Source: Minisyncoccia bacterium (lineage in GTDB: Bacteria; Patescibacteriota; Minisyncoccia; 2-02-FULL-40-12; IGHO2-01-FULL-4-A). From it: a stretch of 64,000 nucleotides of DNA. Location of the stretch: assembly GCA_050015375.1 (NCBI GenBank), contig JBEKBN010000006.1, positions 454-64,453 on the forward strand, written 5' to 3'. Shown in pieces: positions 3,270-60,049 of the stretch. The position numbers were made by a program, and so were the translations under genes. The notes under the pieces were generated by a model that was not told the DNA's origin, made no database searches, and saw nothing but the letters and a program-made list of their open reading frames with translations. Position 1 is the stretch's first letter, and every line of letters starts with the position of its first letter.

Positions 3270-3360
3270 ACTGTTCTTTATCGGCGGTTCCACGGAGCCG
3301 CTTTTTCTTTTTCTCCGGGATTGGAAAAGGAAACGGCGAAATGGTATGATTTAGGCAAAT

Positions 3361-4792: not shown

Positions 4793-4872
4793 CCCAAAAA
4801 GAGTAGAAATAAAATTGTTGAAAGGGCTCACTCTCGAGCTAAAACAAGCTTTTTAACAAAGGAGAACTGACT

Positions 4873-5742: not shown

Positions 5743-5778
5743 TCCCTTGGACTCTTGGTCCCTTGACCCTTGATGCCC

Positions 5779-5816
5779 CGAGGGCGTTCGCTTTGCGAAC
5801 GCCCTCGTTTTATTTT
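5779..5816 (+). terminator. Rho-independent terminator
   Basis: Perfect stem CGAGGGCGTTCGC / GCGAACGCCCTCG with loop TTTG, followed by TTTTATTTT. Confidence 0.75.
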
Positions 5817-5848
5817 GAATTTATCAGTTTTCTGATATAATAATTATT

Positions 5849-6574: not shown

Positions 6575-6638
6575 TTATTAGCCATTAGTTTTTAGAAAAA
6601 TCCTAAGTTCTAATGGTTAAGTCCTAATTACTAACTTG
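6568..6638. repeat. tract of ten heptanucleotide units (CCATTAG/TTATTAG...CTAATGG/CTAATTA/CTAACTT) filling the GT2-galT intergenic region
   Basis: Strict 7-nt periodicity with TAG/TAA anchors, running from the GT2 stop to the galT TTG start. The same CTAACTTG junction occurs at ftsE. Confidence 0.6.
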
Positions 6639-7646
6639 ATAAACGAATTTAGGCAAGATCTGGTTTCGGGCGAATGGGTGCTTTTCGCGACCGGAAGAGC
6701 GAAGAGGCCGGGCGAACCAACGGCGAACGGCAACGGCATCCGCATCGGCAAAAATTTTGAGGATTGTCCTTTCGATGACCCGGAAGCGAAGGGCAATGAG
6801 GTCTTGATGACCTATAAAAACGCCGACGGCTCGGATTGGTTCGCTAAGATCATCAAAAACAAATTTCCGGCGGTTTCCGAAGGCGAAATGGCGCCCCGCC
6901 AGAAAGTTGGCCCTTTCGAGGTGACCGATGCCAAGGGTTTGCACGAAATTTTGATCTTCAAAGATCATAATAAATCTCCATATCATTTGTCGCCAAAAGA
7001 ATTTTCAGAAATTATCAGGATCTACCGCGACCGTTATTTGACTTTGGCCGGCTACAGCGGCAGCAAATATATTTTGATATTTCACAATCACGGCTTAGCC
7101 GCCGGCGCCAGCATCCCTCATCCCCATTCCCAGATAATCACCATTCCGATCTTGCCACCCGACATCAAGCGGAGCATTTTGGGTTCGGAACGCTTTTACC
7201 GCGAGAACGGAAAACGGGTCTATGACCTGATGCTTGACTGGGAAATGAACGACAAAAAGAGGATCGTGGCTGAAAATGACGATTTTGTGGCATTTTGCCC
7301 GTTCGTTTCCAAAACCCCTTATGAAGTCAGGATATTCGGCAAAGAAAGCCACGCCCATTTTGAAAGAATTCCCGACCCCAAACTTCAGACATTGGGGGAA
7401 ATTATGAGCAAAGTTATGCGGAAGGTCAGCAAGGCCTTGAATGCTCCGGATTTCAATTATTTCATCCACACCGCGCCGACCGACGGCATGAGCCAAGATG
7501 TCCATGATTTTTACGCTTGGCATATTGAAATTTTACCCAAAATGAAAATTGAAGGCGCGTTCGAACTTGGCAGTGGCGTGGAGGTGAATGTAGTTGATCC
7601 CGACGAAGCGGCGAAACTTTTACGCGAAGCTGAAGTTGAAAATTAG
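6636..7646 (+). CDS. galT: galactose-1-phosphate uridylyltransferase (HIT family)
   Basis: TTG start. N-terminus GEWVLFATGRAKRP, a CPF zinc motif and the HIT-like active site PHPHSQI. Confidence 0.8.
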   Translation: MINEFRQDLVSGEWVLFATGRAKRPGEPTANGNGIRIGKNFEDCPFDDPEAKGNEVLMTYKNADGSDWFAKIIKNKFPAVSEGEMAPRQKVGPFEVTDAKGLHEILIFKDHNKSPYHLSPKEFSEIIRIYRDRYLTLAGYSGSKYILIFHNHGLAAGASIPHPHSQIITIPILPPDIKRSILGSERFYRENGKRVYDLMLDWEMNDKKRIVAENDDFVAFCPFVSKTPYEVRIFGKESHAHFERIPDPKLQTLGEIMSKVMRKVSKALNAPDFNYFIHTAPTDGMSQDVHDFYAWHIEILPKMKIEGAFELGSGVEVNVVDPDEAAKLLREAEVEN

Positions 7647-7648
7647 AG

Positions 7649-8260
7649 ATGTCAATATTTACCGCGATCATTAACTGGGCTTTGGCGATCATCGGCGCGA
7701 CTGGATATTTGGGCTTGTTTTTGGCGATGATGTTGGAAAGCGCCGGCGTTCCGATCCCCTCAGAAGTCGTTTTGCCATTCGCCGGTTTTTTGGCGGCTTC
7801 GGGGAAATTCAGTTTGATATTGGTGATCGTAGTGGCCACTACCGCCAACTTGACCGGCGCGCTCATTTTTTTCACTATTGGATATTTTGGCGGCACGAGA
7901 TTTTTACGAAAATATGGACACTTTTTATTTATACGCGAAAAAGAAATTTCGAGAATGGAGCGTTGGCTTGACCGCCACGGCGGCAAGGTCGCTTTTTTCT
8001 CAAGGATGTTGCCCGGCGTCAGGACCTACAGCTCATTGGTGATAGGTTCGGGCAAGTCAAGATTGCGGACGTTTATCGGTTATACGCTTCTGGGCTCGGT
8101 CATCTGGAATTCCATCTGGGCCTATCTCGGATATTACACCGGAAACCGCTGGGAAATATTCGGACCCTACGTCAGAAAATTTGATTATTTAATTCTGGCA
8201 GCGATAATCATTTATATCATTGCTTTTTTTGCCAGACATTTCGGTAGAAAAAATAAATGA
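7649..8260 (+). CDS. DedA/SNARE-associated family membrane protein
   Basis: Multi-TM protein with a DedA-type motif (GLFLAMMLESAGVPIPSEVVLPFAGFLAASG). Confidence 0.75.
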   Translation: MSIFTAIINWALAIIGATGYLGLFLAMMLESAGVPIPSEVVLPFAGFLAASGKFSLILVIVVATTANLTGALIFFTIGYFGGTRFLRKYGHFLFIREKEISRMERWLDRHGGKVAFFSRMLPGVRTYSSLVIGSGKSRLRTFIGYTLLGSVIWNSIWAYLGYYTGNRWEIFGPYVRKFDYLILAAIIIYIIAFFARHFGRKNK

Positions 8261-9015
8261 AGACATTAGTAGCAAACTGGAAAATGAATCCCCAAAAATT
8301 GGCTGAAGCCGAGGAACTTTTTGAATACACCATCGCCGAATCGGCCAAATATCCGAACGTCAAAACGATAATTTGTCCGCCGTTCGTCTTTATTGAGGAA
8401 TTGTCCAAATTTCTACAAACTACAAACTACAAACTACAAACTAGCATCGGTTCCCAAAATATTTTTTGGGAATCCAAAGGAGCATATACCGGTGAGATTT
8501 CCACCGAGATGCTGAAAAATTTCGGCGTTAGCCATGTTTTGGTCGGCCATTCCGACCGGCGATATGTCATCGGCGAAACGGACGAGGAAATTAATAAAAA
8601 AATAAAAGCCGCGCTTTTGACCGATATAACCCCGGTGCTTCTAGTTGGCGAGAGAGAAGGCGAGAACCGCGAAGAAATTTTGAGGAAACAATTATCCGCT
8701 GACCTGGCCGGCGTTTCGGCGCCCCATTTGGGGAAGATCCTTTTTGCCTACGAACCGGTCTGGGCAATAAGCACAAATCCGAATGCAAAACCCGATACGC
8801 CCGAAAACACTTTGAAGGCGATCACATTTATAAATAATCTTCTTGCTATCAGCTATAAACTACCAGCCATAAGCTGTCTCTATGGCGGTTCGGTCAATGA
8901 AAAAAATATCGTTGATTTTCTCAAACATCCGGAAATCTCCGGCGCCGTCGTCGGCGGAGCCAGTTTGCGAAAAGAAGAATTTGGAAAAATGTTAAACTTA
9001 GTTTCAACAATTTAA
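8257..9015 (+). CDS. tpiA: triosephosphate isomerase
   Basis: ANWKMNP...VGHSDRRYVIGETDEEI...GGAS motifs. Overlaps the dedA stop (ATGA). Contains an in-frame heptamer-repeat insertion. Confidence 0.9.
   Translation: MKTLVANWKMNPQKLAEAEELFEYTIAESAKYPNVKTIICPPFVFIEELSKFLQTTNYKLQTSIGSQNIFWESKGAYTGEISTEMLKNFGVSHVLVGHSDRRYVIGETDEEINKKIKAALLTDITPVLLVGEREGENREEILRKQLSADLAGVSAPHLGKILFAYEPVWAISTNPNAKPDTPENTLKAITFINNLLAISYKLPAISCLYGGSVNEKNIVDFLKHPEISGAVVGGASLRKEEFGKMLNLVSTI
8413..8447. repeat. (CTACAAA)x4 heptamer tract inside tpiA, in frame, encoding LQTTNYKLQT
   Basis: Four perfect CTACAAA units plus a degenerate fifth (CTAGCAT). They map to a loop that is shorter in B. subtilis TPI. Confidence 0.7.
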
Positions 9016-9078
9016 TCCAATTTTATCATATAGATATATTTCCACGATCGTGGGAATAGGTCTATATCCAAATTTCAA

Positions 9079-10248
9079 ATGATTCGTTACATTTCCGAAT
9101 TGAATAGAGAACAGTTGAACGGCAAAAAAGTTTTATTGCGGGTTGATTTTAATGTGGCGCTATCGCAACTTCCGGCTGTCAACAACCAGCCGCCGACTTT
9201 CAAAATTGCCGAGGGTTTCAGGATAAAGTCGCACAAAGAAACAATTGATTATCTGACCGGCAATGACGCGAAAGTGATGCTGGTGGCGCACATTTCGCAG
9301 ATAAACAGTTTTTTGCCGATCGTGGAAAATATCGGAGAAATTCTCGGCCAGACGCTGACCCTAGTGCCGTTGGAGCATATTTCAGATTCTGGAAAACTTT
9401 TTAGTGCCAGTTCAGTTCTTTTACTGGACAATATCCGCCAAGATTCGGGCGAAGAAAAGAATAGCGACGAATTGGCGAATAAACTGGTTCAGGGCTTTGA
9501 CTTGTATGTCAACGACGCTTTTTCGGTCAGTCATCGCAAGCACGCTTCGGTGTCGGCGGTGGCCGGAAAACTCCCGGCTTATGGCGGATTGCTGATAAAA
9601 AAAGAGATCGAGGGATTATCAAAAGCGCTCAACGCGCCGGTTCAAGGGAAAACCGTGATTTTGGGTGGCGCCAAAATCGCCACTAAGTTGCCGGTCATTG
9701 AGAATTTTTTGGACAAAGCGGAGAAAATACTAGTCGGCGGAGCGATTGCCAACAATTTTTTCAAGGCAAATGGAATTAATGTCGGCGCGTCCTTGGTTGA
9801 CGATGGCACTTTGAGTATAAAAAACCTGGATATGAATAAAATTGTTTTGCCGGTTGACGCGTTGGTTTCCGACGATAGAACCGGAAATGGTAATGTCAGA
9901 TTTGTTGACCTGAAAAAACCCGACATCGCGGCTCAAGAATCGATACTCGACATCGGCAAAGAAAGTATAGCTAACTTCACTGAGATCATCGGCCTTTCAA
10001 AAATGGTGGTTTGGAATGGACCGATGGGTTTGAACGAGGTTGAACGATTTAAAAACGGAACCAACGCTGTGGGCGTTGCGGTTTCAAAAGTCGGCTATTC
10101 TGTCATTGGCGGCGGCGACACGGTGGCGGCGCTTTCTGAAGAGATAAGATCAAAATTCACTTTTGTTTCCACCGGCGGGGGAGCAATGCTTGATTTTCTT
10201 GCCGGCAAACCCATGCCCGGACTTGTTGCTTTGGGCTATCAGGAGTAA
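9079..10248 (+). CDS. pgk: phosphoglycerate kinase
   Basis: LLRVDFNV near the N-terminus and GGGDTVAA / STGGGA near the C-terminus. Confidence 0.9.
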   Translation: MIRYISELNREQLNGKKVLLRVDFNVALSQLPAVNNQPPTFKIAEGFRIKSHKETIDYLTGNDAKVMLVAHISQINSFLPIVENIGEILGQTLTLVPLEHISDSGKLFSASSVLLLDNIRQDSGEEKNSDELANKLVQGFDLYVNDAFSVSHRKHASVSAVAGKLPAYGGLLIKKEIEGLSKALNAPVQGKTVILGGAKIATKLPVIENFLDKAEKILVGGAIANNFFKANGINVGASLVDDGTLSIKNLDMNKIVLPVDALVSDDRTGNGNVRFVDLKKPDIAAQESILDIGKESIANFTEIIGLSKMVVWNGPMGLNEVERFKNGTNAVGVAVSKVGYSVIGGGDTVAALSEEIRSKFTFVSTGGGAMLDFLAGKPMPGLVALGYQE

Positions 10249-10259
10249 GCTGAATTACC

Positions 10260-10694
10260 ATGAAGAAACTCATTATTCATTCTGACGGCGGGTCAAGGGG
10301 AAATCCTGGAGACGCAGCGATCGGCGTGGTCATTGAAGAAATCGGCGGCACGCTCAAGAAACAATACGGCGAATATATCGGCCGGGCGACGAACAACGAA
10401 GCCGAATATCAGGCGGCGATATTCGGTTTAAAAAAATTAAAACAACTTATCGGCAAAGAAGCCATCGAAACGGCGAAAGTCGAGGTCTGGGTGGACAGCG
10501 AACTCTTAGAACGCCAGATCAACGGATTTTTCAAAATTGAAGATACCAATATCCAACCGTTATTTTTGCAATTGTGGAATCTGAGAATTGATTATGGCGA
10601 CATTAAGTTCAAACACGTTCCGCGCGAGCGAAACCGCGAAGCCGATAAGATGGTCAATGCGACACTTGACAAGGAATTAAATAAGCTGATATGA
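10260..10694 (+). CDS. rnhA: ribonuclease HI
   Basis: SDGGSRGNPG...NNEAEYQAAI...VDSELL...HVPRERNREADK are RNase H catalytic motifs. Confidence 0.8.
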   Translation: MKKLIIHSDGGSRGNPGDAAIGVVIEEIGGTLKKQYGEYIGRATNNEAEYQAAIFGLKKLKQLIGKEAIETAKVEVWVDSELLERQINGFFKIEDTNIQPLFLQLWNLRIDYGDIKFKHVPRERNREADKMVNATLDKELNKLI

Positions 10695-10739
10695 TGCGAG
10701 CGGAGTTGGATTGCGAACGTTAAAAAAAAGGAGGACCCC

Positions 10740-10994
10740 ATGAGCATTTCTGACTGGCTTGTGCTTGTCGAAATTGTTGTCTTTGTGTTGACGATCCATT
10801 TTCTTTTGTATCGAAGCAGCAAGGTTTTTAAGTATAGAGGTCGGCTGTTGGATAAGATCCTCAAAATTATTCCCGAGGATCCGGATAGAGCGCTTAGATC
10901 CGTTAAAAAATTAAACTCTACGTCCTATAGTAAAATGGTTTTCGTTTTTTGGAAACCGCTGACCAGTTTTGTGAAAGAAGAAGATTTTGTCTAG
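10740..10994 (+). CDS. small hypothetical membrane protein
   Basis: Strong SD AAGGAGGA 6 nt before the ATG. One predicted TM helix. Confidence 0.45.
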   Translation: MSISDWLVLVEIVVFVLTIHFLLYRSSKVFKYRGRLLDKILKIIPEDPDRALRSVKKLNSTSYSKMVFVFWKPLTSFVKEEDFV

Positions 10995-11102
10995 ATGGCC
11001 ATTGCGCCGTCTTTTTTTATTTCAATGAAAAAATCTTGCCGAAGTTTTTGTTTTATGCTTTCATGGCTTGAGCATCATTAACAATCTTTTATGGGGTAAA
11101 AC

Positions 11103-12254
11103 ATGAAATATCGCGATCCATTGTATGGGGAATGGGAATTACCACCGGTTATTAAAGAATTGGTCCAATCTCGAGCGATGGACAGATACCGGAAGATCAC
11201 CATGTCTTTGTTGCCAAATTCCATGGAACCGCTGGGGACAATTCCAAGCCGATTTCATCATGGAATGGGCGTCTGTTTTTTGGCCCAGGTGGTCGTTGGA
11301 AATAGCATCTCATGGCCCGAAGCAGTTTTCGATCCTTTGGTACTGTTGGTTGCTTCACTGCTTCACGATATCGGCAATCCGTCTTTTCCGCATTTGTCTG
11401 AACCATTTTTAATAGAATTTTGGGGTAAAAATGGTGAAACATTCGCCGCGGACATTATCGCCGGTACGGATATTCCGGAAATTCTCGAGAAATATGATAT
11501 TCCAATCGAAAATGTTCTTGATTTCATTGCCGGAACATTAAGGCCGTATTCAGATGTTCTGAACGGTTCGCTCGATCTCGATAATCTGGACACTCTCCGC
11601 TATGATTATTTCGCGAAATTGGGTGGAATTGACTACGACCCGGTCAAGATCGCCGGAAGTTTCCGGTTTAAAAATAACCGCTGGGTTTTGGATAAAAAAT
11701 GCCAAAGCAATGTTGCCGCATGGAAAATGAATCGGGGAATGGTCTACCGTAAGATTTACAGTTCTCAACATTTGTCTGTGGTTTCAATGGTGCATCGGGC
11801 GCTTGAACTCGCGTTTTTAAAAGGCGAGCTGAACCACGATTTTTTCTTCCTGAATGACGAAGAGGCGGTCAATTTCCTTCGAACCAAATGCAATCCAAAA
11901 ACGGCTAAACTGATGGATATGGCGACGAGATGGCAGTGGTATGATCTGGCTTACGATTATCAGACGACAAATCCCAACCAATGGTTGATTAAAGCATCAA
12001 CTGGCTGGCGAAGCAGGAGGGCCTTGGCTGATGCGATCTGTTTGGACCTGCATTTGTTGCGTGAAAACGTCTGTGTTTATATCGACCGAGGGAGAGACAC
12101 GAGAAGGATCAAAATCCCATTTAGCGACGGGAAAAACCTTGTATTCGATGATGAAGTCGAGATTCCGATTTATCGAATAAAAGTATTTATGGATCCATCC
12201 ATTGGTTACACGAGAAACGATATTAAAGAAATTATTGATGACCTCATCAACTAG
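11103..12254 (+). CDS. HD-domain phosphohydrolase-like protein
   Basis: H...LLHDIGNPSFPH...D pattern typical of the HD superfamily. Confidence 0.6.
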   Translation: MKYRDPLYGEWELPPVIKELVQSRAMDRYRKITMSLLPNSMEPLGTIPSRFHHGMGVCFLAQVVVGNSISWPEAVFDPLVLLVASLLHDIGNPSFPHLSEPFLIEFWGKNGETFAADIIAGTDIPEILEKYDIPIENVLDFIAGTLRPYSDVLNGSLDLDNLDTLRYDYFAKLGGIDYDPVKIAGSFRFKNNRWVLDKKCQSNVAAWKMNRGMVYRKIYSSQHLSVVSMVHRALELAFLKGELNHDFFFLNDEEAVNFLRTKCNPKTAKLMDMATRWQWYDLAYDYQTTNPNQWLIKASTGWRSRRALADAICLDLHLLRENVCVYIDRGRDTRRIKIPFSDGKNLVFDDEVEIPIYRIKVFMDPSIGYTRNDIKEIIDDLIN

Positions 12255-12279
12255 CGGTCTTAAACAGCCGCTTTTTTTA
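12253..12279 (+). terminator. Rho-independent terminator of the HD-domain gene
   Basis: AGCGG-TCTTAAACAG-CCGCT hairpin followed by T7. Confidence 0.6.
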
Positions 12280-12281
12280 TG

Positions 12282-12311
12282 CAAAAAATCCGCTTGAAAG
12301 CGGATTTTTTG
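12282..12311 (-). terminator. Rho-independent terminator for rnpB (minus strand)
   Basis: ATCCGC-TTGAAA-GCGGAT hairpin flanked by A6 and T6. On the minus strand it is followed by a U-run. Confidence 0.55.
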
Positions 12312-12875
12312 ATGTCTTGGCAAATCTGTAAGCCGAATTCTGTTCCCCCACTTTTTGAGTTGCCCCAAAAGTGGGGGAGGCGATCATTTATCTGGTCCCT
12401 CGGTTACCCTCGGGATCTAGCGTCTCTTCCCCCACTTTTTAAGTTGCCCTAAAAGTGGGGGACACGGACTTGCACCGGGCAGGGTTTAGCGCGCATCCAT
12501 GTCGCCATGGAGCGGTCCCGTTCGGGGCCTTTTCACCCGTGATCCGCTTGCGCGGACTCGGAATAGTTTCTGTGCCACTTTCCCTGAATTTTGATAAATA
12601 ACTTTTGTCTTAAGAACAAAAACTATCCATCTTATATTCGGTGGCCATTAGCCACTGCCCTGCTTACGCAATCACCAACTGCTAATCTCTAATCTCAAAT
12701 AAAACCATTGGCGATCTTAGTTAACAATTAATGATTGCGTAAGCGGTGTTCGGACTTTCCTCCCTAAAACATTTTGCTTTCGCAAAATGTTCGGGCGATC
12801 AATTCGCAAAGCGAATTGATTTAGCCCCAAATCCAATAAGAATTCGTAGAGTAATCACCCGATTTACCAGGACTT
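12312..12875 (-). ncRNA. rnpB: RNase P RNA (bacterial type A-like) with an extended helix and twin hairpin insertions
   Basis: Reverse complement carries GGGAGGAAAGUCCGAAC (P4 5'), CAGGGCAG, AGUGGCACAGAAAC, CGCGCAAGCGGAUCACGGGUGAAAAGG, CUAAACCCUGCCCGGUGCAAG and ACAGAAUUCGGCUUACAG (J/P4 3'). These align with E. coli M1 RNA. The 5' and 3' ends are approximate. Confidence 0.8.
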
Positions 12876-19891: not shown

Positions 19892-20983
19892 GTGAAAATC
19901 GCATTGGTTCAGGACTATCTTGTCGAATACGGCGGGGCCGAGAGGGTTCTTCAGGCGCTTTGCGAAATTTTTCCGGAGGCGCCGATCTACACTTTACTTT
20001 ATGATGAGAAAGCCAGCGGCCGGGTTTTTCGCGACCGCGAGATCCACACCTCCTTTATCCAAAAGATTCCTTTCGCCCGGCGACACCACCGATTATTCGC
20101 GGCTTTGATGCCTTTGGCCATCGAACAATTCGATCTGTCGGAATTTGATTTTGTTTTATCGAACTCGGCTTCCTTCGGCAAGGGCGTCATCACCAAACCC
20201 AAAACCACCCACATCAACTACTGCATGACCCCGACAAGATTTCTTTGGGACGACAGTCATCGTTTTATTGATGAGTTCAAATTGCCTTGGCTGATCAGAA
20301 AAATGACACCAGCCGTCATCGCTTATCTTCGGATCTGGGACAAAGAGGCCGCCTTGCGGGTGGACGAATTCGTCGCTATTTCCAACCATGTAAAAACCCG
20401 GATCGCCAAATATTATCAGCGCGACGCGAAAGTCATCACTCCGCCGATAGATGTCAGCAAATATCATATAAGCCCCGAAGTTGACGAATATTTTTTAATG
20501 GTCGGCCGCTTAGTTGCCTACAAACGCTTTGACCTGGCGATCCAGGTTTTCAACGCCATCGGCAAACCATTGAAGATCGTCGGCGATGGGCCGGAGCGAT
20601 ATCGGCTTGAAAAAATGGCCAAAAAAAATATCGAATTTCTCGGTCTTGTCTCCGATGATAAATTGCCCGGACTCTACAGCCGCGCTCAAGCGGTGATTTT
20701 CCCCCAGGAAGAGGATTTCGGTTTGGTGCCGCTGGAAGCGATGGCTTCGGGCCGGCCGGTCATCGCGTATCGCGCCGGCGGGGCGCTGGAAACGGTCATT
20801 GATGGCCGGACTGGAATATTTTTTGACGAGCAAACGGAAATCTCGATGGCTTTGGCCATCAGCAGATATTACGAAACCAAATTCAATCCCAACGTTATCC
20901 GGGCCCACGCTTTGGATTTCGACAAATCCATCTTCAAGGAGAAAATTCTCAAATTGCTTGCCCCCACACTCAATCGCGATTGA
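19892..20983 (+). CDS. family 4 (group 1) glycosyltransferase
   Basis: GTG start. GT-B fold with C-terminal motif FPQEEDFGLVPLEAMASGRPVIAYRAGG. The stop codon is supplied by a palindromic element. Confidence 0.85.
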   Translation: MKIALVQDYLVEYGGAERVLQALCEIFPEAPIYTLLYDEKASGRVFRDREIHTSFIQKIPFARRHHRLFAALMPLAIEQFDLSEFDFVLSNSASFGKGVITKPKTTHINYCMTPTRFLWDDSHRFIDEFKLPWLIRKMTPAVIAYLRIWDKEAALRVDEFVAISNHVKTRIAKYYQRDAKVITPPIDVSKYHISPEVDEYFLMVGRLVAYKRFDLAIQVFNAIGKPLKIVGDGPERYRLEKMAKKNIEFLGLVSDDKLPGLYSRAQAVIFPQEEDFGLVPLEAMASGRPVIAYRAGGALETVIDGRTGIFFDEQTEISMALAISRYYETKFNPNVIRAHALDFDKSIFKEKILKLLAPTLNRD

Positions 20984-23630: not shown

Positions 23631-25460
23631 ATGCAAAACATCCGCAATTTTTGTATAATTGCTCACATAGACCATGGCAAAAGCACCTTAGCCGACCGGC
23701 TTTTAGAATTGACGGGCACAATTGAAAAGCGCAAAATGCACGAACAATTTCTGGACCAGATGGAATTGGAGCGTGAAAGAGGGATTACCATAAAACTCCA
23801 ACCCGTCCGCATGCAATACGGCGAATATATTTTGAATTTAATAGATACGCCGGGCCATGTGGATTTCACCTACGAAGTTTCTCGTTCGCTGGCGGCGGTG
23901 GAGGGTGCGATTTTACTTGTGGATGCCGCCAAAGGCGTTCAAGCCCAGACACTGGCCAATTTGCATTTGGCGCAAAGACAGAATTTGGTCATTATTCCGG
24001 TCATCAACAAAATTGATCTACCCAATGCCAGAGTGGCCGAAGCCGAAGAAGAAATTTCCAATTTGCTTGCCGTTGAACCGGACGAAATTATCAAGATTTC
24101 CGCCAAGACCGGTGAAGGCGTGGAGAAAGTTCTTGAAGCGGTTGTCGAAAAAATTCCCCCGCCATCTACTCACTACTCACTACCAACTACCAACTATCCT
24201 CGCGCCCTGATTTTTGATTCCGCTTTTGACGCTTACAAAGGCGTTGTCGCTTATGTCAGGATTTTTGACGGCAACTTCCGGGCCGGAGACAAAATTAAAC
24301 TTTTCGCTTCCAAAGCCGAAGCCGAGATAATCGAAGTTGGTCAGTTTAAACCCGCCTTGAGCAAAACCGATTCTATCGGCGAAGGTGAGATCGGCTATAT
24401 CGCCACCGGTTTGAAAAATCCCGGCGATGTCCGCGTTGGTGATACGGTTTTCTCTACAAACTATAAACCACAAACTACAAACTTTTCACCCCTTCCCGGC
24501 TACAAAGAACCGATGCCGGTGGTTTTCGCCAGTTTTTTTCCGGAAAAAGGGGAAGATTATGATCTGCTGAAAGACGCGCTGGGAAAACTGAAATTGACCG
24601 ATGCCTCGCTGACTTATGAACCGGAATCTTCACCAGCCCTCGGCCGGGGTTTTCGCCTTGGCTTTCTGGGTATGCTCCACACCGAGATCATCAGTGAGCG
24701 GTTGCGCCGGGAATTCAAATTGTCGCTGATAATTTCCTCGCCGTCGGTGGAATATCACATTTTGAAAAAGAACGGCCAAGAAATTCCCATCCGTTCGGCA
24801 TCAGAGATGCCCAATCCGAGTTATATTGATAAAATTTTCGAACCGACGGTTGTGCTGGAATTGTTGAGCCCATCTGAATATCTCGGTTCATTGATGAAAC
24901 TTCTTTCCGAAATGCGAAGCTCTTATCTAGCCACTGATTATTTGACCAAGGAAATCGTGATTTTAAAATACAAAGTCCCGCTGACTGAAATTGTGACCGA
25001 TTTTTATGACAAACTGAAAAGCGTCAGTTCCGGTTACGCTTCGATGAGTTATTCACCCCCACACTCATTAGATGAGTGTGGGGGCAAGCAGGATGGCTAT
25101 GAGGAATCTGATCTGGTTCGGCTGGATATTTTGGTGGCCGGGGATTTGGTTGAACCGTTTTCGAGAATGGTTCCGAGATCGCGCGTTCATGACGAAGGCA
25201 AGAGAATTGTCGAGAAGTTGAAGAAAATAATTCCGCGGCAATGGTTCGCGGTGGCGATCCAAGCGGCCATCGGCGGGAAAATAATCGCTCGGGAAACCAT
25301 CAGCGCTTTGCGAAAAGATGTTACCGGTTATCTCTACGGCGGGGATATTACCCGCAAGAAAAAATTATTGGAGAAGCAAAAGAGGGGGAAGGCGAGGATG
25401 AAAGAGGAAGGCAAGGTGAATATTCCGCAGAATGTGTTTCTGGAGATGCTGAAAAAGTAG
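23631..25460 (+). CDS. lepA: elongation factor 4 (LepA)
   Basis: IRNFCIIAHIDHGKSTLADRLL...DTPGHVDF and a C-terminus matching E. coli LepA. Contains three in-frame repeat insertions. Confidence 0.92.
   Translation: MQNIRNFCIIAHIDHGKSTLADRLLELTGTIEKRKMHEQFLDQMELERERGITIKLQPVRMQYGEYILNLIDTPGHVDFTYEVSRSLAAVEGAILLVDAAKGVQAQTLANLHLAQRQNLVIIPVINKIDLPNARVAEAEEEISNLLAVEPDEIIKISAKTGEGVEKVLEAVVEKIPPPSTHYSLPTTNYPRALIFDSAFDAYKGVVAYVRIFDGNFRAGDKIKLFASKAEAEIIEVGQFKPALSKTDSIGEGEIGYIATGLKNPGDVRVGDTVFSTNYKPQTTNFSPLPGYKEPMPVVFASFFPEKGEDYDLLKDALGKLKLTDASLTYEPESSPALGRGFRLGFLGMLHTEIISERLRREFKLSLIISSPSVEYHILKKNGQEIPIRSASEMPNPSYIDKIFEPTVVLELLSPSEYLGSLMKLLSEMRSSYLATDYLTKEIVILKYKVPLTEIVTDFYDKLKSVSSGYASMSYSPPHSLDECGGKQDGYEESDLVRLDILVAGDLVEPFSRMVPRSRVHDEGKRIVEKLKKIIPRQWFAVAIQAAIGGKIIARETISALRKDVTGYLYGGDITRKKKLLEKQKRGKARMKEEGKVNIPQNVFLEMLKK
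24166..24200. repeat. heptamer tract (CTACTCA x2, CTACCAA x2, CTATCCT) in frame inside lepA, encoding STHYSLPTTNYP
   Basis: Five 7-nt units with a CTA anchor. Absent from E. coli LepA at the equivalent PAPQGDPDAPLQ position. Confidence 0.65.
24454..24488. repeat. heptamer tract (CTACAAA/CTATAAA/CCACAAA/CTACAAA) in frame inside lepA, encoding TNYKPQTTNF
   Basis: Same unit as the tpiA tract. About 7 extra residues relative to E. coli LepA. Confidence 0.65.
25056..25084. repeat. palindromic element CCCCCACACTCA-TTAGA-TGAGTGTGGGGG (copy 2) inserted in frame in lepA, encoding SPPHSLDECGG
   Basis: Perfect 12-bp arms with a 5-nt loop. Adds about 11 residues relative to E. coli LepA between GYAS and SDLV. 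Confidence 0.75.
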
Positions 25461-31473: not shown

Positions 31474-31517
31474 ATAACATGTAGATATTGACCATATGGT
31501 CAATATCTACATGTTAT
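31474..31517. promoter_or_regulatory. 44-bp perfect palindrome (ATAACATGTAGATATTGACCAT|ATGGTCAATATCTACATGTTAT), putative operator
   Basis: Perfect dyad 30 bp upstream of the PaaX-like gene, in a divergent region shared with arsR. A near-copy is at 32111-32138. Confidence 0.6.
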
Positions 31518-31546
31518 TGTTTTATAGTTTCTGTTATTATGTATTC

Positions 31547-32113
31547 ATGAAGGCGATAAGAAGAGGAACCCTAGCTTTTAAAATTTTAAAAGGCATTGGT
31601 CTAACGGGTTTGTTTTTAATAAGCATGTCGAACCCGCGTTTTGGGGTTCAGTTATTGACGGGATTTAAAGAATATAACAAAAGGGAGAAACAAAAATTCA
31701 GAGAATCGTTATATTATTTGAAAAAAAGAGGATTGGTAAAAATCATAGAAAACAGTAGCGGCGGCTTTACGGCCAAATTGTCAAAGACCGGAGAAAAAAT
31801 GTTGGAATCTATCGACATTGATTGTCTTGAATTGAAAAATAAGGAATTTGATGGAAAATGGCGCGTGGTTATCTTTGATGTTCCGGTCAGATTGAATATT
31901 AAAAGACACGCTTTTACGGAACGACTGAAAACTCTGGGTTTTATCATGGTTCAAAGAAGTGTATGGATTTGTCCGTTTAGGTGCAGAAAAGAACTGGCGA
32001 TGTTAACCCAATTTTACGAAATTGAGAAATACGTCACATATTTAGAAACATCTTTTGTGGATAACGAAGAAGCGTGGAAAAAAGAGTTTTCACTAATCAA
32101 ACTGGTGGCTTAG
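31547..32113 (+). CDS. PaaX-like regulator: N-terminal winged helix plus a C-terminal Cas2-fold domain
   Basis: SLYYLKKRGLVKIIE (wHTH), then GKWRVVIFDVPVRLNIKRHAFTERLKTLGFIMVQRSVWICPF, which resembles the Cas2/PaaX_C motif (YDV..KRR...L...G.R.Q.SV). Confidence 0.5.
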   Translation: MKAIRRGTLAFKILKGIGLTGLFLISMSNPRFGVQLLTGFKEYNKREKQKFRESLYYLKKRGLVKIIENSSGGFTAKLSKTGEKMLESIDIDCLELKNKEFDGKWRVVIFDVPVRLNIKRHAFTERLKTLGFIMVQRSVWICPFRCRKELAMLTQFYEIEKYVTYLETSFVDNEEAWKKEFSLIKLVA

Positions 32114-32138
32114 ATATTCACCATATGGTCAATATCTA
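32111..32138. promoter_or_regulatory. imperfect 28-bp palindrome (TAGATATTCACCAT|ATGGTCAATATCTA), second copy of the operator-like dyad
   Basis: One central mismatch relative to the 31474 dyad. Overlaps the stop codon of the PaaX-like gene. Confidence 0.5.
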
Positions 32139-33666: not shown

Positions 33667-34536
33667 ATGAAAATAATTTTCAGGATTCTTTATTATTTGT
33701 TTTTCACGGCGGTTATTGTCGTTGTTTTGGCGTTGCTGGTGTCATTATTTCCGATTTTCGGGGGATTGAAGTTTTTCATTGTTCGATCGGGCTCGATGGC
33801 ACCGGCGATCAAAACCGGAAGCGTAGTGATGGTCAAACCCGAAGCCGATTACAAAATCGGGGATATAATATCGTTCAGTTTGGATGAAAAAAATGAAATA
33901 CCCACGACTCACCGCATCAAGGAAATAAAAATCAAAAACGGAATTCAGAAATTTATCACTCAAGGCGACGCCAACAACGCGCCGGACATGGTTGAAATTG
34001 AAAAAGAAAATATTATCGGCAAAGTGATTCTGACCGTTCCTTTAGCCGGATATTTGGTTGCAGTCGCTCAAAAACCGAGCGGTTATCTGGCGCTGATATT
34101 GATTCCGGCGTTCGTGATAATCGGCGACGAAATCTCGAAGATCATCAGGGAAACGAGAAAAAAACGTCAAGAGAAAAGCCAATCAAGCAACAAATCAATC
34201 CCATTCTATATTTTTTGTTTGGGTCTGGGACTTGCCGAGCTTTTACTCCCATCAATTCGCGCAAATTCGTTTTTCACGGCGACTGAAACCGGTGGGTTGA
34301 TGATAGTTGCCGGTTCGTGGTCACACGCCAAGACATCGGGCATCGCTATCGTGGCTCAAGAACCGACTTCTGATTCCGAGATTGACGTTCAAATCGCGAG
34401 TGGCGCTTCGGGAATCGAGTCAAATAAGGATGAACTAGCCCCAGAGCCGGCGGCGCCTCCGGCGCCGCCGGCCCCCGAAATCCCGCCGGCCGAAACCACC
34501 GTGGCGAGTCCTTCCGCCGAAATCATTCATGATTAA
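33667..34536 (+). CDS. sipW: signal peptidase I, SipW/archaeal type (S26B), with a Pro/Ala-rich C-terminal extension
   Basis: FIVRSGSMAPAIKTGSVVMV (SGSMxP), catalytic His in PTTHRI, and a second TM. The C-terminus is PEPAAPPAPPAPEIPPAE. Confidence 0.8.
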   Translation: MKIIFRILYYLFFTAVIVVVLALLVSLFPIFGGLKFFIVRSGSMAPAIKTGSVVMVKPEADYKIGDIISFSLDEKNEIPTTHRIKEIKIKNGIQKFITQGDANNAPDMVEIEKENIIGKVILTVPLAGYLVAVAQKPSGYLALILIPAFVIIGDEISKIIRETRKKRQEKSQSSNKSIPFYIFCLGLGLAELLLPSIRANSFFTATETGGLMIVAGSWSHAKTSGIAIVAQEPTSDSEIDVQIASGASGIESNKDELAPEPAAPPAPPAPEIPPAETTVASPSAEIIHD

Positions 34537-35410
34537 AACAAAAGTAAAACCAATTTTGACGGCAATTATTCTGTTTTTCGTTTTTTCGACCATTTTTTTG
34601 TCCGTCGTCAGTGTTCAAGCCGCCGATTTTCAGGTTACCTTCCAAAATCATCCGCTTTTCAAAAACGCCAATTTCATTCCCGGCGATTCGATCACTCGTT
34701 GGATCAAGGTCGTCAACAACAGCGGCCAAAATCAAACCGTCTTGATAAAAAGCGACAATGCCAGCGACCCCAATCACATGGACGGCGCAATGAATCTGAC
34801 CATCAAACAAGGGACCGCCACGCTTTATCAGAATTCTTTCGCTGATTTTTTGAGCGGGGACTTGATCGCTCTTTCTGAACTTGATAGCGGAAAAAGCGCT
34901 CAATATAATCTGACGGTTACATTCGATTTGTCCGCTGATGATCTTTATCAAAACAAGACGCTTGGTTTTAATATTCTTGTCGGTTTTGAACCGACCGGCT
35001 ACGAACAAAGCGATACCGGCACAACTTTTCTAACTGACAATCCCGATAATAAAGTCGAGGTTGTAACAATGACGCCGACGCCTTCGATAATTTCGTCGTC
35101 GCCGACGCCGACTCCGTCGGCGTCGGCGACCCCATCTCCCCGGCTAAAACCCAGCGTGAGTCCAATTTTACTTCGATCATCGCCAGCGCCCGTAATCGTT
35201 CACAATATTTCTTCCGCTACCACGTTATCCGCCAATTCACTTGCAACCCCGAACCTCCCGCCGTCTCTGACGACCGCCAATCCCGTCCGCCAACCCCAAC
35301 TCGCCCTCATTCTCGGCGTTTCCCCGACCCGCTGGCTGATCTATATTTTCATTTCCCTATTTGTCGGTATCGTTTCTTATGTAATTTCAAAAAAGTGGTT
35401 TAAAAATTAA
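34529..35410 (+). CDS. secreted surface protein with a Pro/Thr/Ser linker and a C-terminal TM anchor
   Basis: Signal peptide, a beta-rich domain, a PTPS-rich linker and the C-terminal anchor IYIFISLFVGIVSYVISKKWFKN. The anchor-coding segment is duplicated at 36193-36262. Confidence 0.5.
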   Translation: MIKTKVKPILTAIILFFVFSTIFLSVVSVQAADFQVTFQNHPLFKNANFIPGDSITRWIKVVNNSGQNQTVLIKSDNASDPNHMDGAMNLTIKQGTATLYQNSFADFLSGDLIALSELDSGKSAQYNLTVTFDLSADDLYQNKTLGFNILVGFEPTGYEQSDTGTTFLTDNPDNKVEVVTMTPTPSIISSSPTPTPSASATPSPRLKPSVSPILLRSSPAPVIVHNISSATTLSANSLATPNLPPSLTTANPVRQPQLALILGVSPTRWLIYIFISLFVGIVSYVISKKWFKN

Positions 35411-55256: not shown

Positions 55257-56543
55257 ATGACCGTTTCTGATATAATTAAACAAATGGAGGAAAAAGAAAA
55301 TGAATTGAAATTCCCCAACGGGTTTTTGTGGGGGACGGCCACGTCAAGCTATCAGATAGAAGGTGGAATAAATAATTGCGACTGGGCCCAAGCGAATCGC
55401 GGTCCCTCGACAAGTTCAGGACATCAGATTCCTGATGCTGGGCGCGCTTGCGATAGTTACAATAAATACGAGGAGGATTTTGATATTGCCAAATCGCTTG
55501 GCCAGAACGCCCACCGTTTCTCTATAGAATGGGCGCGGATCGAGCCGGAAGAGGGAAAATTCGACGAGAAAGAAATCGAGCATTATAAAAAAGTGCTGGA
55601 CGCCTTGCGAACTCGCCCCCACACTCAAGATTTGAGTGTGGGGGGAACGGGATTGGAACCATTCGTGACCCTTTGGCATTTCACGCTTCCGGTTTGGTTC
55701 GCGAAAATGGGCGGTTTCGAAAATCCGAAATCACCGGAAATATTTTCCCGATATTGCGAATTTGTCGTTGGCAAAATGGGGGATAGAGTTCACCCTGTTA
55801 AATCCGGCGAAGCCGGTGCCGCGGAGCGGCAATTTAACAGGGTAAAATTCTGGGTAACTATAAACGAACCGATGGTTTATGCCTCGAATGGTTACCGAAA
55901 AGGTCAATGGCCGCCGTTTGAAAAAAATATTTTCAGGTTCATGAAGGTTATCAAAAATCTAATCATGTCGCACAATCTAGCATATGACAAAATCAAGAAC
56001 ATTGATCCTTCGGCTCAGATCGGCATCGCTAAAAATAATATAAATTTTGAGGCAAATTGGAACCCAATCAATCGCCTCTTGTCAAGCTTTCTGAATTTTT
56101 TCTGGAATCGCAGATTTTTGAATAAAATTTCACAGGATTTCATCGGTTTGAATTATTATTTCCACAAAAAGTTCGGGGATAGGGCGAAGTATCCGAAATC
56201 CGACATGGGTTGGGATATTTATCCGAAAGGAATTTATAATTTGCTGATGGAACTGAAAAAATATGGTAAACCGGTTTACATCACCGAAAACGGATTGGCG
56301 GACAAAGAAGACAAACAACGCGCCGATTTCATCCGTGAACATTTGAAATGGGTTTCGAGAGCGATCCGGGATGGCTCTGACTGCCGCGGATATTTTTATT
56401 GGTCGCTTCTGGATAATTTTGAGTGGGCGGAGGGTTACAAACAAAAATTCGGTTTGGTGGAAATTAATTTTGAAACAATGGAAAGAAAGATCAGGAATTC
56501 AGCGTGGGAATTTGCAAAAATTTGTAAAAATAACGAAATATGA
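55257..56543 (+). CDS. glycoside hydrolase family 1 (beta-glucosidase-like) carrying two in-frame palindromic insertions
   Basis: FLWGTATSSYQIEGG, TINEP (acid/base) and ITENGLA (nucleophile). Carries insertions RTRPHTQDLSVGG and HPVKSGEAGAAERQFNRV relative to canonical GH1. Confidence 0.88.
   Translation: MTVSDIIKQMEEKENELKFPNGFLWGTATSSYQIEGGINNCDWAQANRGPSTSSGHQIPDAGRACDSYNKYEEDFDIAKSLGQNAHRFSIEWARIEPEEGKFDEKEIEHYKKVLDALRTRPHTQDLSVGGTGLEPFVTLWHFTLPVWFAKMGGFENPKSPEIFSRYCEFVVGKMGDRVHPVKSGEAGAAERQFNRVKFWVTINEPMVYASNGYRKGQWPPFEKNIFRFMKVIKNLIMSHNLAYDKIKNIDPSAQIGIAKNNINFEANWNPINRLLSSFLNFFWNRRFLNKISQDFIGLNYYFHKKFGDRAKYPKSDMGWDIYPKGIYNLLMELKKYGKPVYITENGLADKEDKQRADFIREHLKWVSRAIRDGSDCRGYFYWSLLDNFEWAEGYKQKFGLVEINFETMERKIRNSAWEFAKICKNNEI
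55616..55644. repeat. palindromic element CCCCCACACTCA-AGATT-TGAGTGTGGGGG (copy 3), in frame in GH1
   Basis: Perfect 12-bp arms. Encodes RPHTQDLSVGG, inserted before the conserved GxEPFVTLxHxxLP block. Confidence 0.75.
55793..55842. repeat. second, distinct GC-rich palindromic insertion (CCCTGTTAAAT-28 nt-ATTTAACAGGG), in frame in GH1
   Basis: 11-bp perfect arms. The loop itself holds two hairpins (CCGGC-GAA-GCCGG and GCCGC-GGA-GCGGC). Encodes about 16 extra residues between GDRV and KFWVTINEP. Confidence 0.65.
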
Positions 56544-57427
56544 TCTGGATCCTTCTGGCAATTCTGTCCCAATTCATCTCCGCCGGCGTTTACATGGCCG
56601 ACAAGTATCTTGTTGGACCCAAAGCCATCGGCCGGCCGGTGGTTTACGCCATCTATGTCTGCTTGCTTTCGGGTTTCGTTTTGGTTTTATTGCCTTTTGG
56701 CGTGGTTTTGCCGCTGACCTGGCCGCTAATTGCGCTTTGTCTGGGGATCACGGTTGCTTTCACGACTTCCCTATTATTTCTTTATTCCGCTCTTAAAACT
56801 TCTGATGTTTCGGATGTGGCGCCGGTCATGGGCGCGATCTCGGCCGTGGCCACATTGGCTTTCGGACTGTATTTTTTGGATTCAATGCTGCCCAGATTAT
56901 TTTTCATCGGCTTTCCGCTTTTGATATTCGGGACTTTTCTGATGTCGCGTTTTCGGTTTAATAAGAAATCCTCCTTTTATGTTATCGCCGCCGGAATTCT
57001 TTTCGGACTTTCATCGATTTTAATAAAAATATTGTTCGGAGAAACCTCATTTCTTAACGCGTTTTTCTGGTCGCGGATGACGAATGTTTTCGGCGCGATA
57101 ATTTTACTTTTGTGGCCGGCGAATTTCAAAGCCGTGTTCAGCAATGTCAAAAGTTCGACCGGCGGAACGAAAATTTTGGTCGTCGGCAACAAAACGCTGG
57201 CCGGTATCGCCTATCTCTTATCGCTGGTGGCAATAAAACTCGGCAATGTTACCGTCGTCAACTCATTGGCCGGTTTTGAATTCGTTTTTATTTTGCTTCT
57301 GGCTTTTATTTTCACTTATAAATTTCCGAAATATTTTCAAGAGGCCGTTCACAACAAAAACGACCGGCTGAAAAAGATCTGGGCTTCGGGTTTGATAATA
57401 ATCGGGTTCGTGATCATGTTCCTATGA
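56540..57427 (+). CDS. hypothetical polytopic membrane protein (about 10 TM)
   Basis: 295 aa and strongly hydrophobic. No motif. Confidence 0.5.
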   Translation: MIWILLAILSQFISAGVYMADKYLVGPKAIGRPVVYAIYVCLLSGFVLVLLPFGVVLPLTWPLIALCLGITVAFTTSLLFLYSALKTSDVSDVAPVMGAISAVATLAFGLYFLDSMLPRLFFIGFPLLIFGTFLMSRFRFNKKSSFYVIAAGILFGLSSILIKILFGETSFLNAFFWSRMTNVFGAIILLLWPANFKAVFSNVKSSTGGTKILVVGNKTLAGIAYLLSLVAIKLGNVTVVNSLAGFEFVFILLLAFIFTYKFPKYFQEAVHNKNDRLKKIWASGLIIIGFVIMFL

Positions 57428-58509
57428 AGAAGCACAAAAAATATTTTTCAATTCCCATTATCCTTTTCTTGATCCTTTTGGTTTTAACCTTGGCTTGGAA
57501 TTTGCTTTCCATCAGGCCGGTTCCCGAAAAAGTAAATTACGGCGTTTCGTTCAGCGTTTTTCATTCCAACGAACTCAATCTGGATTGGAAAAAAACATAT
57601 TTGGCGATCTTAGACGATCTTAAGGTCAGGAACTTGCGGCTTACCGCTCATTGGCCGCTGACCGAGCCGGCCGACGGCAAATACGATTTCTCAGAATTGG
57701 ATTTTCAGATAAACGAAGCCGATAAACGCGGCGCGACCTATATTCTGGCCGTCGGCCGGCGCCTGCCCGGCTGGCCGGAATGCCATGTGCCGGATTGGGT
57801 TATGAATCAAGAATCACAAATCACGAATCAAGGTGAAAAAACTGATTTTGAGAACCAAAAGTTATTGGAATATATTCAGACGACCGTTGAGCGTTACAAA
57901 AATTCCCCCGGTCTGAAATATTGGCAAGTCGAGAATGAACCGTTCCTAGGATTTTTCGGCCGTTCGAGCTGCCAATTGACCGACGAGAATTTTTTCAAAC
58001 AGGAGATCGCTCTTGTCCATAAACTCGATCCGACCCATCCGGTTCTGGCGACCGACAGCGGCGAGTTCGGCTATTGGTATCAGGCCTACCGCGACGGTGA
58101 TGTTTTCGGCACCTCCTTGTATCTGTATGTTTGGTGGCGGGCGCTTGGCATCGGCCCCTTGCGTTATCCCATCGGGCCGTCGTTTTTCCGAGTGAAGCAA
58201 AATGTGGTTGATTTTATCGGTTGTGTCTTGGGCGATTCACCCTCACACTCAATTTTTGAGTGTGAGGGCAAGCCGACAATTCTCATTGAACTGGAAGCCG
58301 AGCCCTGGCTTTTAACACCGATCGTTGACGCGCCGATGGCGACTCTCCTTGACCGGATGGGGATTGATAAATTCGAAACCATGATCCAAACCGCCAAAGA
58401 AGCCGGTTTTGGCGACCAATATCTCTGGGGCGCCGAGTGGTGGTATTGGATGGAACAAAATGGCCATCCGGAATTTTGGCAGGCGGCGAAGCAACTTTTT
58501 AACCAATAA
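57424..58509 (+). CDS. glycoside hydrolase, clan GH-A (GH5/GH113-like)
   Basis: Signal/TM N-terminus, then YWQVENEPF (acid/base NEP) and LIELEAEPW (nucleophile Glu). The family is not resolved. Confidence 0.55.
   Translation: MKKHKKYFSIPIILFLILLVLTLAWNLLSIRPVPEKVNYGVSFSVFHSNELNLDWKKTYLAILDDLKVRNLRLTAHWPLTEPADGKYDFSELDFQINEADKRGATYILAVGRRLPGWPECHVPDWVMNQESQITNQGEKTDFENQKLLEYIQTTVERYKNSPGLKYWQVENEPFLGFFGRSSCQLTDENFFKQEIALVHKLDPTHPVLATDSGEFGYWYQAYRDGDVFGTSLYLYVWWRALGIGPLRYPIGPSFFRVKQNVVDFIGCVLGDSPSHSIFECEGKPTILIELEAEPWLLTPIVDAPMATLLDRMGIDKFETMIQTAKEAGFGDQYLWGAEWWYWMEQNGHPEFWQAAKQLFNQ
58240..58268. repeat. palindromic element variant CCCTCACACTCA-ATTTT-TGAGTGTGAGGG (copy 4), in frame in the GH-A hydrolase gene
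   Basis: Both arms carry a compensatory change (C to T paired with G to A), so pairing is preserved. Encodes SPSHSIFECEGKP. Confidence 0.75.
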
Positions 58510-59956: not shown

Positions 59957-59963
59957 TCCATCG

Positions 59964-60001
59964 AAGAGCGGCCCGCTCGCGAGCGAGCGGGCCGCTCTTC
60001 A
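59964..60001 (+). terminator. GC-rich 17-bp perfect stem-loop after htrA (no U-tract)
   Basis: GAAGAGCGGCCCGCTCG-CGAG-CGAGCGGGCCGCTCTTC. Probably a transcript-end or processing structure. Confidence 0.4.
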
Positions 60002-60020: not shown

Positions 60021-60049
60021 CCCCCACACTCATGCATGAGAACGGGGGC
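60021..60049. repeat. degenerate intergenic copy (copy 5) of the CCCCCACACTCA palindromic element
   Basis: CCCCCACACTCATGCATGAGAACGGGGG has a left arm identical to the family and a decayed right arm. Confidence 0.5.

Follow-up and report, generated by a model that had tools for sequence, protein, structure and literature searches.

The window analysed here, a 64,000-nucleotide stretch of contig JBEKBN010000006.1 from a Minisyncoccia bacterium, contains a GH1 beta-glucosidase gene that carries a palindrome of 29 nucleotides, P29, at positions 55616-55644. The palindrome is a true insertion into this gene. It probably belongs to a family of selfish, non-autonomous mini-elements that resembles MITEs (miniature transposable elements with inverted repeats), is widespread in Patescibacteria, the candidate phyla radiation (CPR), and has here entered a GH1 gene whose enzyme most probably still works. 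An initial annotation of the window had described the palindrome as an inserted element, and its interpretation is supported overall. The features of the GH1 gene are:

55257-56543, forward strand: GH1 beta-glucosidase, 428 amino acids, intact open reading frame (ORF); Pfam PF00232, E = 1.2e-85, 288 bits
55616-55644: P29, palindromic core of 29 nt with arms CCCCCACACTCA and TGAGTGTGGGGG and loop AGATT
55612-55644, forward strand: likely net insertion, CTCG plus P29, 33 nt or 11 codons (equivalent placement 55613-55645)
55789-55846: second palindromic insertion, of another family, in frame, with a net length of 54 nt or 18 amino acids (RVHPVKSGEAGAAERQFN)

Insertion of the palindrome into the GH1 gene

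The arms of P29, which had been described as perfect around an AGATT loop, are indeed fully complementary over 12 nt each, and an added A-T pair extends the structure to a 13-bp stem with a 3-nt loop. RNA folding of either strand gave free energies of -26 to -27 kcal/mol with z scores of about -6 against shuffled sequences (for example -27.3 kcal/mol, z = -5.9), and the palindrome of the 29-mer was matched in none of 100 shuffles. In the GH1 frame P29 translates as (R)PHTQDLSVG(G), in agreement with the peptide R-P-H-T-Q-D-L-S-V-G-G reported for the codons that the palindrome overlaps, and the predicted peptide spanning the insertion contains LRTRPHTQDLSVGGTGLEPF. Its location between two conserved GH1 blocks was also confirmed, these being LDAL and GLEPFVTLWH in this protein.

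Alignment to characterized GH1 sequences and structures, a check suggested with the initial annotation, placed the insertion. The HMMER alignment to PDB entry 1vff (Pyrococcus) shows an 11-residue gap exactly at P29, with LLTR-----------GITPLVTLHH in 1vff and LRTRPHTQDLSVGGTGLEPFVTLWH in the query, and the PDB alignments showed that the insert is absent from the solved GH1 structures too. A protein search returned 120 entries, and none of the 119 non-identical GH1 homologues had any residue in the 11 insert columns. The insert is therefore not a universal, non-palindromic feature of GH1 proteins in this clade, which had been named as the finding that would speak against an insertion. An ancestral loop was rejected on the same grounds, since 0 of 119 GH1 homologues, 0 of 119 homologues of a GH42-like protein encoded in the window and none of the closest lepA homologues carry the respective insert.

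At the level of single bases the ends of the GH1 insertion are ambiguous, since the nearest homologue is only 67% identical and the DNA of the relatives with an empty site is too divergent. An identical protein is known from one Minisyncoccia metagenome-assembled genome (MAG), and the 67% homologue is the next closest. Empty sites were found in locus L186 (TTG CGG GAA CGC GGA TTG) and in L185. P29 is flanked by CTCG and GAAC, and GAAC is present twice, at 55608-55611 and 55645-55648. By analogy with the GH42-like and lepA cases described below, which are unambiguous, the net insertion is taken to be 55612-55644.

The element family in the window and across Patescibacteria

Including the copy in the GH1 gene, the 64-kb window contains five copies of the element family, and the 10-nt core of the arms occurs 10 times where 1.9 occurrences are expected. 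The other copies are:

25056-25084: copy in lepA (ORF 23631-25460), loop TTAGA, read as PPHSLDECGG, net gain of 11 residues after SMSY
58240-58268: copy in a GH42-like glycosidase gene (ORF 57424-58509), arms CCCTCACACTCA and TGAGTGTGAGGG, loop ATTTT, net gain of 11 residues
20961-20992: copy whose loop has 8 nt (ATCGCGAT), located at the 3' end of a GT4 glycosyltransferase gene (ORF 19892-20983)
60021-60048: degenerate spacer copy downstream of an HtrA-like gene; its centre is the canonical TGCA and its right arm contains three mismatches

The lepA copy has 12-nt arms identical to those of P29, so the proposed identity of the two elements held. Alignment of the lepA product with Thermus EF4 left an 11-residue gap, and the closest CPR homologues (80-83% identical) are without the insert. 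In the GH42-like gene the arms differ from those of P29 by a compensated change, C to T on one arm and G to A on the other. Here, too, an 11-residue gap was seen in the alignment and none of 119 homologues carries the insert. The sequence reads GGC GAT (TCA-P29-C) AAG CCG, and taking out TCA-P29-C restores the conserved G-D-K-P. The glycosyltransferase ORF ends within its element copy, which provides the last residues and the TGA stop codon. All four lineage-specific insertions of at least eight amino acids in the GH1, lepA and GH42-like proteins are strong palindromes at the DNA level, and the remaining query-specific segments of these proteins are 6-7 residues long and non-palindromic.

The position directly after SMSY in LepA (window positions 25047-25091) is an insertion hot spot across the CPR. 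Exactly there, the homologue P0143 (L184, 4376-4445) has a member of the P29 family with a nested loop of 38 nt; its gene reads TAT (TCA-P-C) GAG CCT, and removal of the bracketed unit restores SMSY-EP. Other LepA homologues have unrelated or shortened inserts after SMSY (the proteins at this site are P0143, P0162, P0128, P0135, P0163 and P0154). Such hot spots may reflect tolerance of the protein for extra residues, a target preference or both. Immediately before the degenerate spacer copy, just after the HtrA-like gene, lies a perfect hairpin at 59963-60000 with 18-nt arms (GAAGAGCGGCCCGCTCGC and GCGAGCGGGCCGCTCTTC).

Scanning one genome per species for the pattern CCCACACTCA-N3-8-TGAGTGTGGG returned 66 loci. 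According to record titles, 52 of them belong to Patescibacteria MAGs, often with several loci per genome, and the groups represented are Yanofsky-, Falkow-, Azam- and Saccharibacteria, Parcubacteria and Paceibacteria. The other 14 loci mostly have different closing pairs, longer loops and flanks made of A/T runs, and their number is near a rough chance estimate of about 6. At least 114 loci were obtained in a scan of metagenomes. From genomes and metagenomes at least 141 further non-redundant copies were recovered, mostly from Patescibacteria.

Among the matches listed in these scans, 67 of 141 copies have the centre TGCA, which gives a perfect palindrome of 28 bp, CCCCCACACTCATGCATGAGTGTGGGGG, composed of CCCCCACACTCA-TGCA-TGAGTGTGGGGG. 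An exact 4-bp direct repeat stands directly outside the palindrome in 64 of the 141, compared with 0-3 copies at control offsets, and only three of these repeats extend to 5 bp. The repeated sequence varies: TTTA/TAAA was found 31 times, TTGA/TCAA and CAAG/CTTG 10 times each, and TTCA, CTCG, TTAA and CTCA occur as well. An exact repeat of constant length and variable sequence that is nearly missing at control offsets is the mark that duplication of a target site leaves. Larger elements ending in the termini of the short ones, CCCCCACAC...GTGTGGGGG, were also detected, namely elements of 131 bp (L085, repeat TTCA), 142 bp (L140, repeat CTCA) and 148 bp (L023), together with forms of 58-59 nt (L131, L184).

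Most copies are intergenic and lie close to the 3' ends of genes. The spacers comprise 23 between convergent and 13 between divergent genes, and in tandem gene pairs the copy follows the upstream gene at a median distance of 25 nt. Only three viral contigs carried the palindrome, and a phage origin was therefore rejected. The empty sites (L183, L185, L186) are all in species other than those with the filled ones. No description of the element was found in the searchable open literature on palindromic elements or MITEs in CPR, which is not proof of novelty. No Rfam family matched at the gathering threshold, and at E<=1 only a meaningless miRNA-hairpin match was obtained, on the second GH1 insertion; a known RNA family was rejected accordingly.

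Nine independent insertions into ORFs were identified: in the GH1, lepA and GH42-like genes, in the genes for KsgA, BipA, TGT and a glycosyltransferase, and twice in HolA. These copies are a filtered subset of the family. Loops of 5 nt are enriched among them (seven of nine, against 17 of 133; p = 5e-5), and the net gain is 33 nt with a 29-nt core in the GH1, lepA, GH42-like and TGT genes and, judged by eye, in BipA. A 5-nt loop leaves two of three frames open (PPHSxxECGG and PHTQxLSVG), and these are the two frames observed. In the KsgA/RsmA gene a 28-nt form with TTCA...CAAG flanks occurs at the same position in three different CPR genomes (L031, L060, L169), with a net gain of about 9-10 residues relative to Bacillus KsgA. 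On a metagenome contig (L165, about 700-12350) five family members lie within 12 kb. Several of them have variant, compensated arms, and three are in frame within a single HolA-like ORF of 431 amino acids.

Proposed movement of the element and comparison with known systems

These observations are best explained if the canonical 28-bp palindrome is regarded as a minimal MITE with conserved termini, a variable 4-bp direct repeat, many copies per genome and relatives of 130-150 bp. Such an element would be moved by an enzyme encoded elsewhere, and in a gene-dense CPR genome some copies would land in ORFs. Copies surviving there would have to be a multiple of three bases long, free of stop codons and located at a site that the protein tolerates. 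A survival filter of this kind would leave ORF copies with a 29-nt core (33 nt net, 11 codons) in surface loops. The GH1 copy would be transcribed and translated as PHTQDLSVGGT, forming a disordered loop that links helix alpha2 to strand beta3. As for the mobilizing enzyme, a DDE-type transposase acting on the termini comes somewhat short of an even chance, a route recognizing a folded hairpin or single-stranded DNA is a less probable alternative, and some other activity accounts for the rest.

Several findings weigh against the movement of a minimal MITE by a transposase. A Pfam scan of the 58 ORFs of the window revealed no transposase or integrase, and neither the window nor 1.39 Mb of related loci yielded a transposase or autonomous element that has these termini, which, short of a search of whole genomes, does not show absence. 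A search of the same sequences for a parent insertion sequence (IS), using lone half-sites as well as termini separated by 60-4000 nt and accompanied by a 4-bp repeat, returned two MITE-sized members only. A duplex of 28 bp would presumably be too short for both of its ends to be held in one transposase synapse unless it is folded. The 4-bp direct repeat is present in none of the nine ORF copies, the GH1 copy included, compared with 64 of 133 others (p = 0.004). On one flank the ORF copies instead carry an element-borne tetranucleotide of the form YTYR, which plain cut-and-paste transposition does not predict. It is TTCA in five cases and otherwise CTCG, TTTA or CTTG, and the opposite flank is native and usually (C)RAG. 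Where the empty site is unambiguous (the GH42-like gene and lepA of L184), the four extra nucleotides are not copied from the target.

Other geometries of duplication were considered for the ORF copies. Different offsets and repeat lengths of 4-7 gave no consistent pattern. An inverted target duplication would account for TGT (CTCG/CGAG) but leaves the recurrent TTCA...CAAG pairs unexplained, and P29 plus CAAG as the inserted unit was rejected because AAG (Lys) is native in the GH42-like gene. The two classes of flanks could not be reconciled with one simple mechanism.

The arms themselves also bear on this question. In a mismatch-tolerant re-detection, 63 copies had arm variants in which a matching change on the other arm preserves pairing, and in 22 a position was left unpaired. 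Compensated variants outside the selection imposed by the search pattern were CCTA/TAGG (four copies), CCAA/TTGG, CTTA/TAAG, CCCA/TGGG and CCCT../..AGGG. Among the matches listed, the two outermost positions covary as well (CC/GG 76, TC/GA 28, AC/GT 8 and GC/GC 5, with nine mismatched). Recognition of terminal repeats by a protein needs no such pairing, so this is a further point against a transposase acting on a minimal MITE. The covariation suggests a role for the folded hairpin or the copying of one arm from its partner.

As a less probable alternative, a structure-specific enzyme, of the HUH/Y1 type or another that recognizes hairpins, would move the element in the form of a folded hairpin or single-stranded DNA and not of a duplex with terminal inverted repeats. 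One arm would then template or constrain the other, and the unit entering ORFs would be the 33-nt YTYR plus P29, with no target duplication. The excess of compensated copies (CCTA/TAGG, CTTA/TAAG and the window copy at 58240 are examples), the covariation of the terminal positions 1-2 and the ORF copies with their one-sided tetranucleotide in place of a direct repeat are all in line with this. The flanking tetranucleotides (TTCA, TTTA, CTTG) are, moreover, T-rich, as are the targets of IS200/IS605 elements. On the other hand, a 4-bp repeat found in many sequences (TTTA, TTGA, CAAG, CTCG and others) fits a staggered cut of the target better than recognition of a fixed tetranucleotide. In addition, there is no Y1/HUH gene among the window ORFs, and the GTAG motif typical of repetitive extragenic palindromic (REP) sequences is absent. 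In its most far-reaching form, which we regard as tentative, this explanation would make the hairpins of 28-29 bp a new superfamily in Patescibacteria, the smallest mobile DNA known. In place of ordinary cut-and-paste of a duplex, a folded or single-stranded intermediate would keep the arms identical. A sub-lineage of 33 nt (YTYR plus 29 nt) would be adapted to landing in frame, giving essential and metabolic proteins loops of 11 more residues, and hairpin elements would be a general source of the lineage-specific insertions in CPR proteins.

A quite different and unlikely explanation is that the hairpin is functional in the GH1 mRNA or DNA as a translational or transcriptional pause, an RNase site or a protein-binding site, that is, a recruited motif and not a passenger. 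Its great stability (-25 to -27 kcal/mol) would agree with this, as would the perfect arms of the three ORF copies in the window next to the decayed intergenic copy; the position of intergenic copies near gene 3' ends would suit a terminator. The host genes are, however, unrelated (GH1, lepA, GH42-like, KsgA, BipA, TGT, HolA), and so are the positions within them. The orthologues are all without the insert, no U-tract follows the GH1 copy, no Rfam family matches, and the kept reading frame argues for simple read-through.

Returning to the proposed MITE-like mobile element, in behaviour it comes closest to the Rickettsia palindromic elements (RPEs), and by anatomy it is a minimal MITE. In a reduced genome, RPEs lie in frame within mutually unrelated housekeeping and metabolic genes, are translated and tolerated by the fold of the protein, and also occur in spacers (PMC10969869). 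The presence of an in-frame palindromic repeat in protein genes is common to both systems, with a gain of 11 residues each in the GH1, lepA and GH42-like proteins. RPEs are, however, much larger (about 100-150 bp and 30-50 residues, compared with 28-29 bp, 33 nt net and 11 residues) and belong to another phylum, and the intergenic copies of the element described here show a clear 4-bp repeat at their flanks. No sequence relationship was seen, the RPE consensus sequences being left unaligned.

With MITEs such as Correia, ERIC, RUP and Nezha the family shares inverted repeats at its termini, a short duplication of the target site in part of its copies, a large number of non-coding copies, long and short members that end alike and the occasional fusion in frame to host ORFs. 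Inverted repeats are present, and the many dispersed copies are devoid of coding capacity, as 28-29 nt cannot encode a protein. The target-site duplication is seen in 64 of the 141 family copies listed and in 0 of 9 ORF copies. Unlike in MITEs, the element consists of the two termini alone, no parent IS was found in the window and the 1.39 Mb of loci, the arms covary as a structured hairpin and the ORF copies are without a duplication. It is several-fold smaller than any MITE known to us.

REP sequences mobilized by REP-associated tyrosine transposases (RAYTs, IS200/IS605-like) are likewise GC-rich hairpins of 20-40 nt, highly repeated, with compensated stems and often located just after genes. 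REPs are extragenic, have a conserved 5' tetranucleotide of the GTAG type, form REPIN doublets and lack a target duplication. The present family differs in its single copies, YTYR instead of GTAG flanks, the frequent 4-bp repeat and the copies inside ORFs, and no RAYT or Y1 transposase match was obtained among the window ORFs in the Pfam scan.

Mobile GC-rich palindromic clusters of about 30-50 bp with short target duplications are also known from yeast and fungal mitochondria, which have compact, AT-biased genomes. They are organellar, have sequences of their own and sometimes form optional in-frame inserts, for example in var1; the resemblance to the element studied here is one of kind only. 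IS1380-type elements have termini beginning with CC and a duplication of 4-5 bp. The present element also starts with CC, ends with GG and shows a 4-bp duplication, which is a lead only, as no transposase or full-length element was found.

Proteins and RNAs of CPR/Patescibacteria contain unexplained lineage-specific insertions, and one palindrome family is common to genomes of the Yanofsky-, Falkow-, Azam- and Saccharibacteria type. If the pattern seen in the three host proteins, where every lineage-specific insertion of at least eight amino acids is a DNA palindrome, holds more widely, it would provide a concrete molecular source for such insertions and a marker of recent genome change and of assembly breaks in CPR MAGs. 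It might also serve as a tiny model for the minimum length of mobile DNA, and for whether hairpin structure or protein-read sequence is what is copied.

State of the GH1 enzyme and further palindromes of the window

The occurrence of two insertions in one gene had raised the question of whether this GH1 copy is active or decaying, and the evidence favours an intact enzyme. The ORF has neither a stop codon nor a frameshift. Catalytic residues are kept, with the acid/base Glu204 in TINEP (NEP at 203-205) and the nucleophile Glu344 in ITENG (342-346). In an alignment of 95 sequences the query retains 41 of 41 invariant columns, including N203-E204-P205 and E344-G346, and the nearly invariant positions likewise. 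An AlphaFold2 model built on this alignment reached a mean pLDDT (per-residue confidence score) of 91.6 and a pTM (predicted template modelling score) of 0.90, and Foldseek matched it to PDB entry 1vff with a TM score of 0.83. The glutamates of the NEP and TENG motifs and the (beta/alpha)8 fold, as seen from the motifs, AlphaFold2 and Foldseek, are those of a GH1 enzyme.

The only low-confidence blocks of the model are residues 121-130 (pLDDT 55) and 181-190 (pLDDT 57). Both are the insertions, modelled as coil. Insert 1 follows helix 104-118 (alpha2) and precedes strand 134-138 (beta3), and insert 2 joins helix 159-174 to strand 198-203. Loops leading from a helix to the next strand are, in a (beta/alpha)8 barrel, on the face opposite the catalytic one. 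With both inserts in alpha-to-beta loops of the model, the geometry of the TIM barrel puts them at the sites where it best tolerates extra residues, and by the same general geometry they should face away from the active site.

Inactivation of the gene by the two insertions, leaving a decaying pseudogene, is improbable. What would favour it is the presence of two insertions in one gene, which together amount to 29 extra residues, both predicted to be disordered. The uninterrupted frame, the retained invariant and nearly invariant positions with E204 and E344, the Pfam score, the confidently predicted fold, the intact neighbouring genes and the location of the inserts in loops of the non-catalytic face by general geometry all argue against decay, as does the occurrence of inserts at the second site in numerous other GH1 proteins of the CPR. 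Most probably, judging from the conserved residues and the predicted structure, the enzyme is functional, and in annotation 11-residue loops of this sort are no evidence for pseudogenes.

Least probable of all, and hardly worth considering, are an artefact of assembly and a chance palindrome in an ordinary clade-specific loop: assemblies do break at repeats of this family and many copies lie at contig ends, but the DNA is identical in three assemblies (the GH1 insertion is found without mismatch in Logan assembly SRR7028199 and in JGI metagenome 3300038424), the same 12-nt arms recur at four other places in the window and at more than 140 other loci, and 0 of 119 homologues have the loop.

The second insertion, which the initial annotation had noted near 55793 as a further insertion of the gene, is real and adds 18 residues (54 nt), but it is a member of another family of palindromes. 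Its arms, CACCCTGTTAAAT and ATTTAACAGGGTA, enclose two small hairpins, and the resulting three-way fold has a free energy of -36 kcal/mol. The site is filled with varied sequences in many CPR GH1 homologues. In L185 the homologous insert shows two changes in the arms, both of which are compensated.

Further palindromic structures were observed elsewhere in the window. The RNase P RNA gene (12313-12810, reverse strand; Rfam RF00010, 126 bits) is 498 nt long compared with 367 nt for the model and has a 132-nt expansion in the P12 region. It contains near-identical hairpins at 12344-12376 and 12430-12460, CCCCCACUUUU...AAAAGUGGGGG. One of them aligns to a native helix, and the second is extra sequence near the 3' end. 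The first 7 bases of these hairpins match the terminus of the element family.

A perfect 44-bp palindrome at 31474-31517 and a palindrome at 32111-32138 have ATGGTCAATATCTA in common and flank an ORF at 31496-32113 with a PaaX_M (Cas2-like) domain, for which they may be operator sites. A PaaX_M gene also adjoins the GH1 gene in L186.

A CRISPR repeat, a Xer/dif-like site (11-6-11) and a telomere-resolvase site, which the size of 28 bp had brought to mind, were set aside for the P29 family on the layout of its copies, which are solitary, numerous, associated with 4-bp repeats and found in ORFs. Finally, two GC-rich inverted repeats were seen inside ORFs, one in the GH42-like gene (57666-57760) whose 13-nt arms are separated by 69 nt and which by homologue alignment is not a lineage-specific insertion, and one with 15-nt arms at 35098-35130 in ORF 34529-35410.

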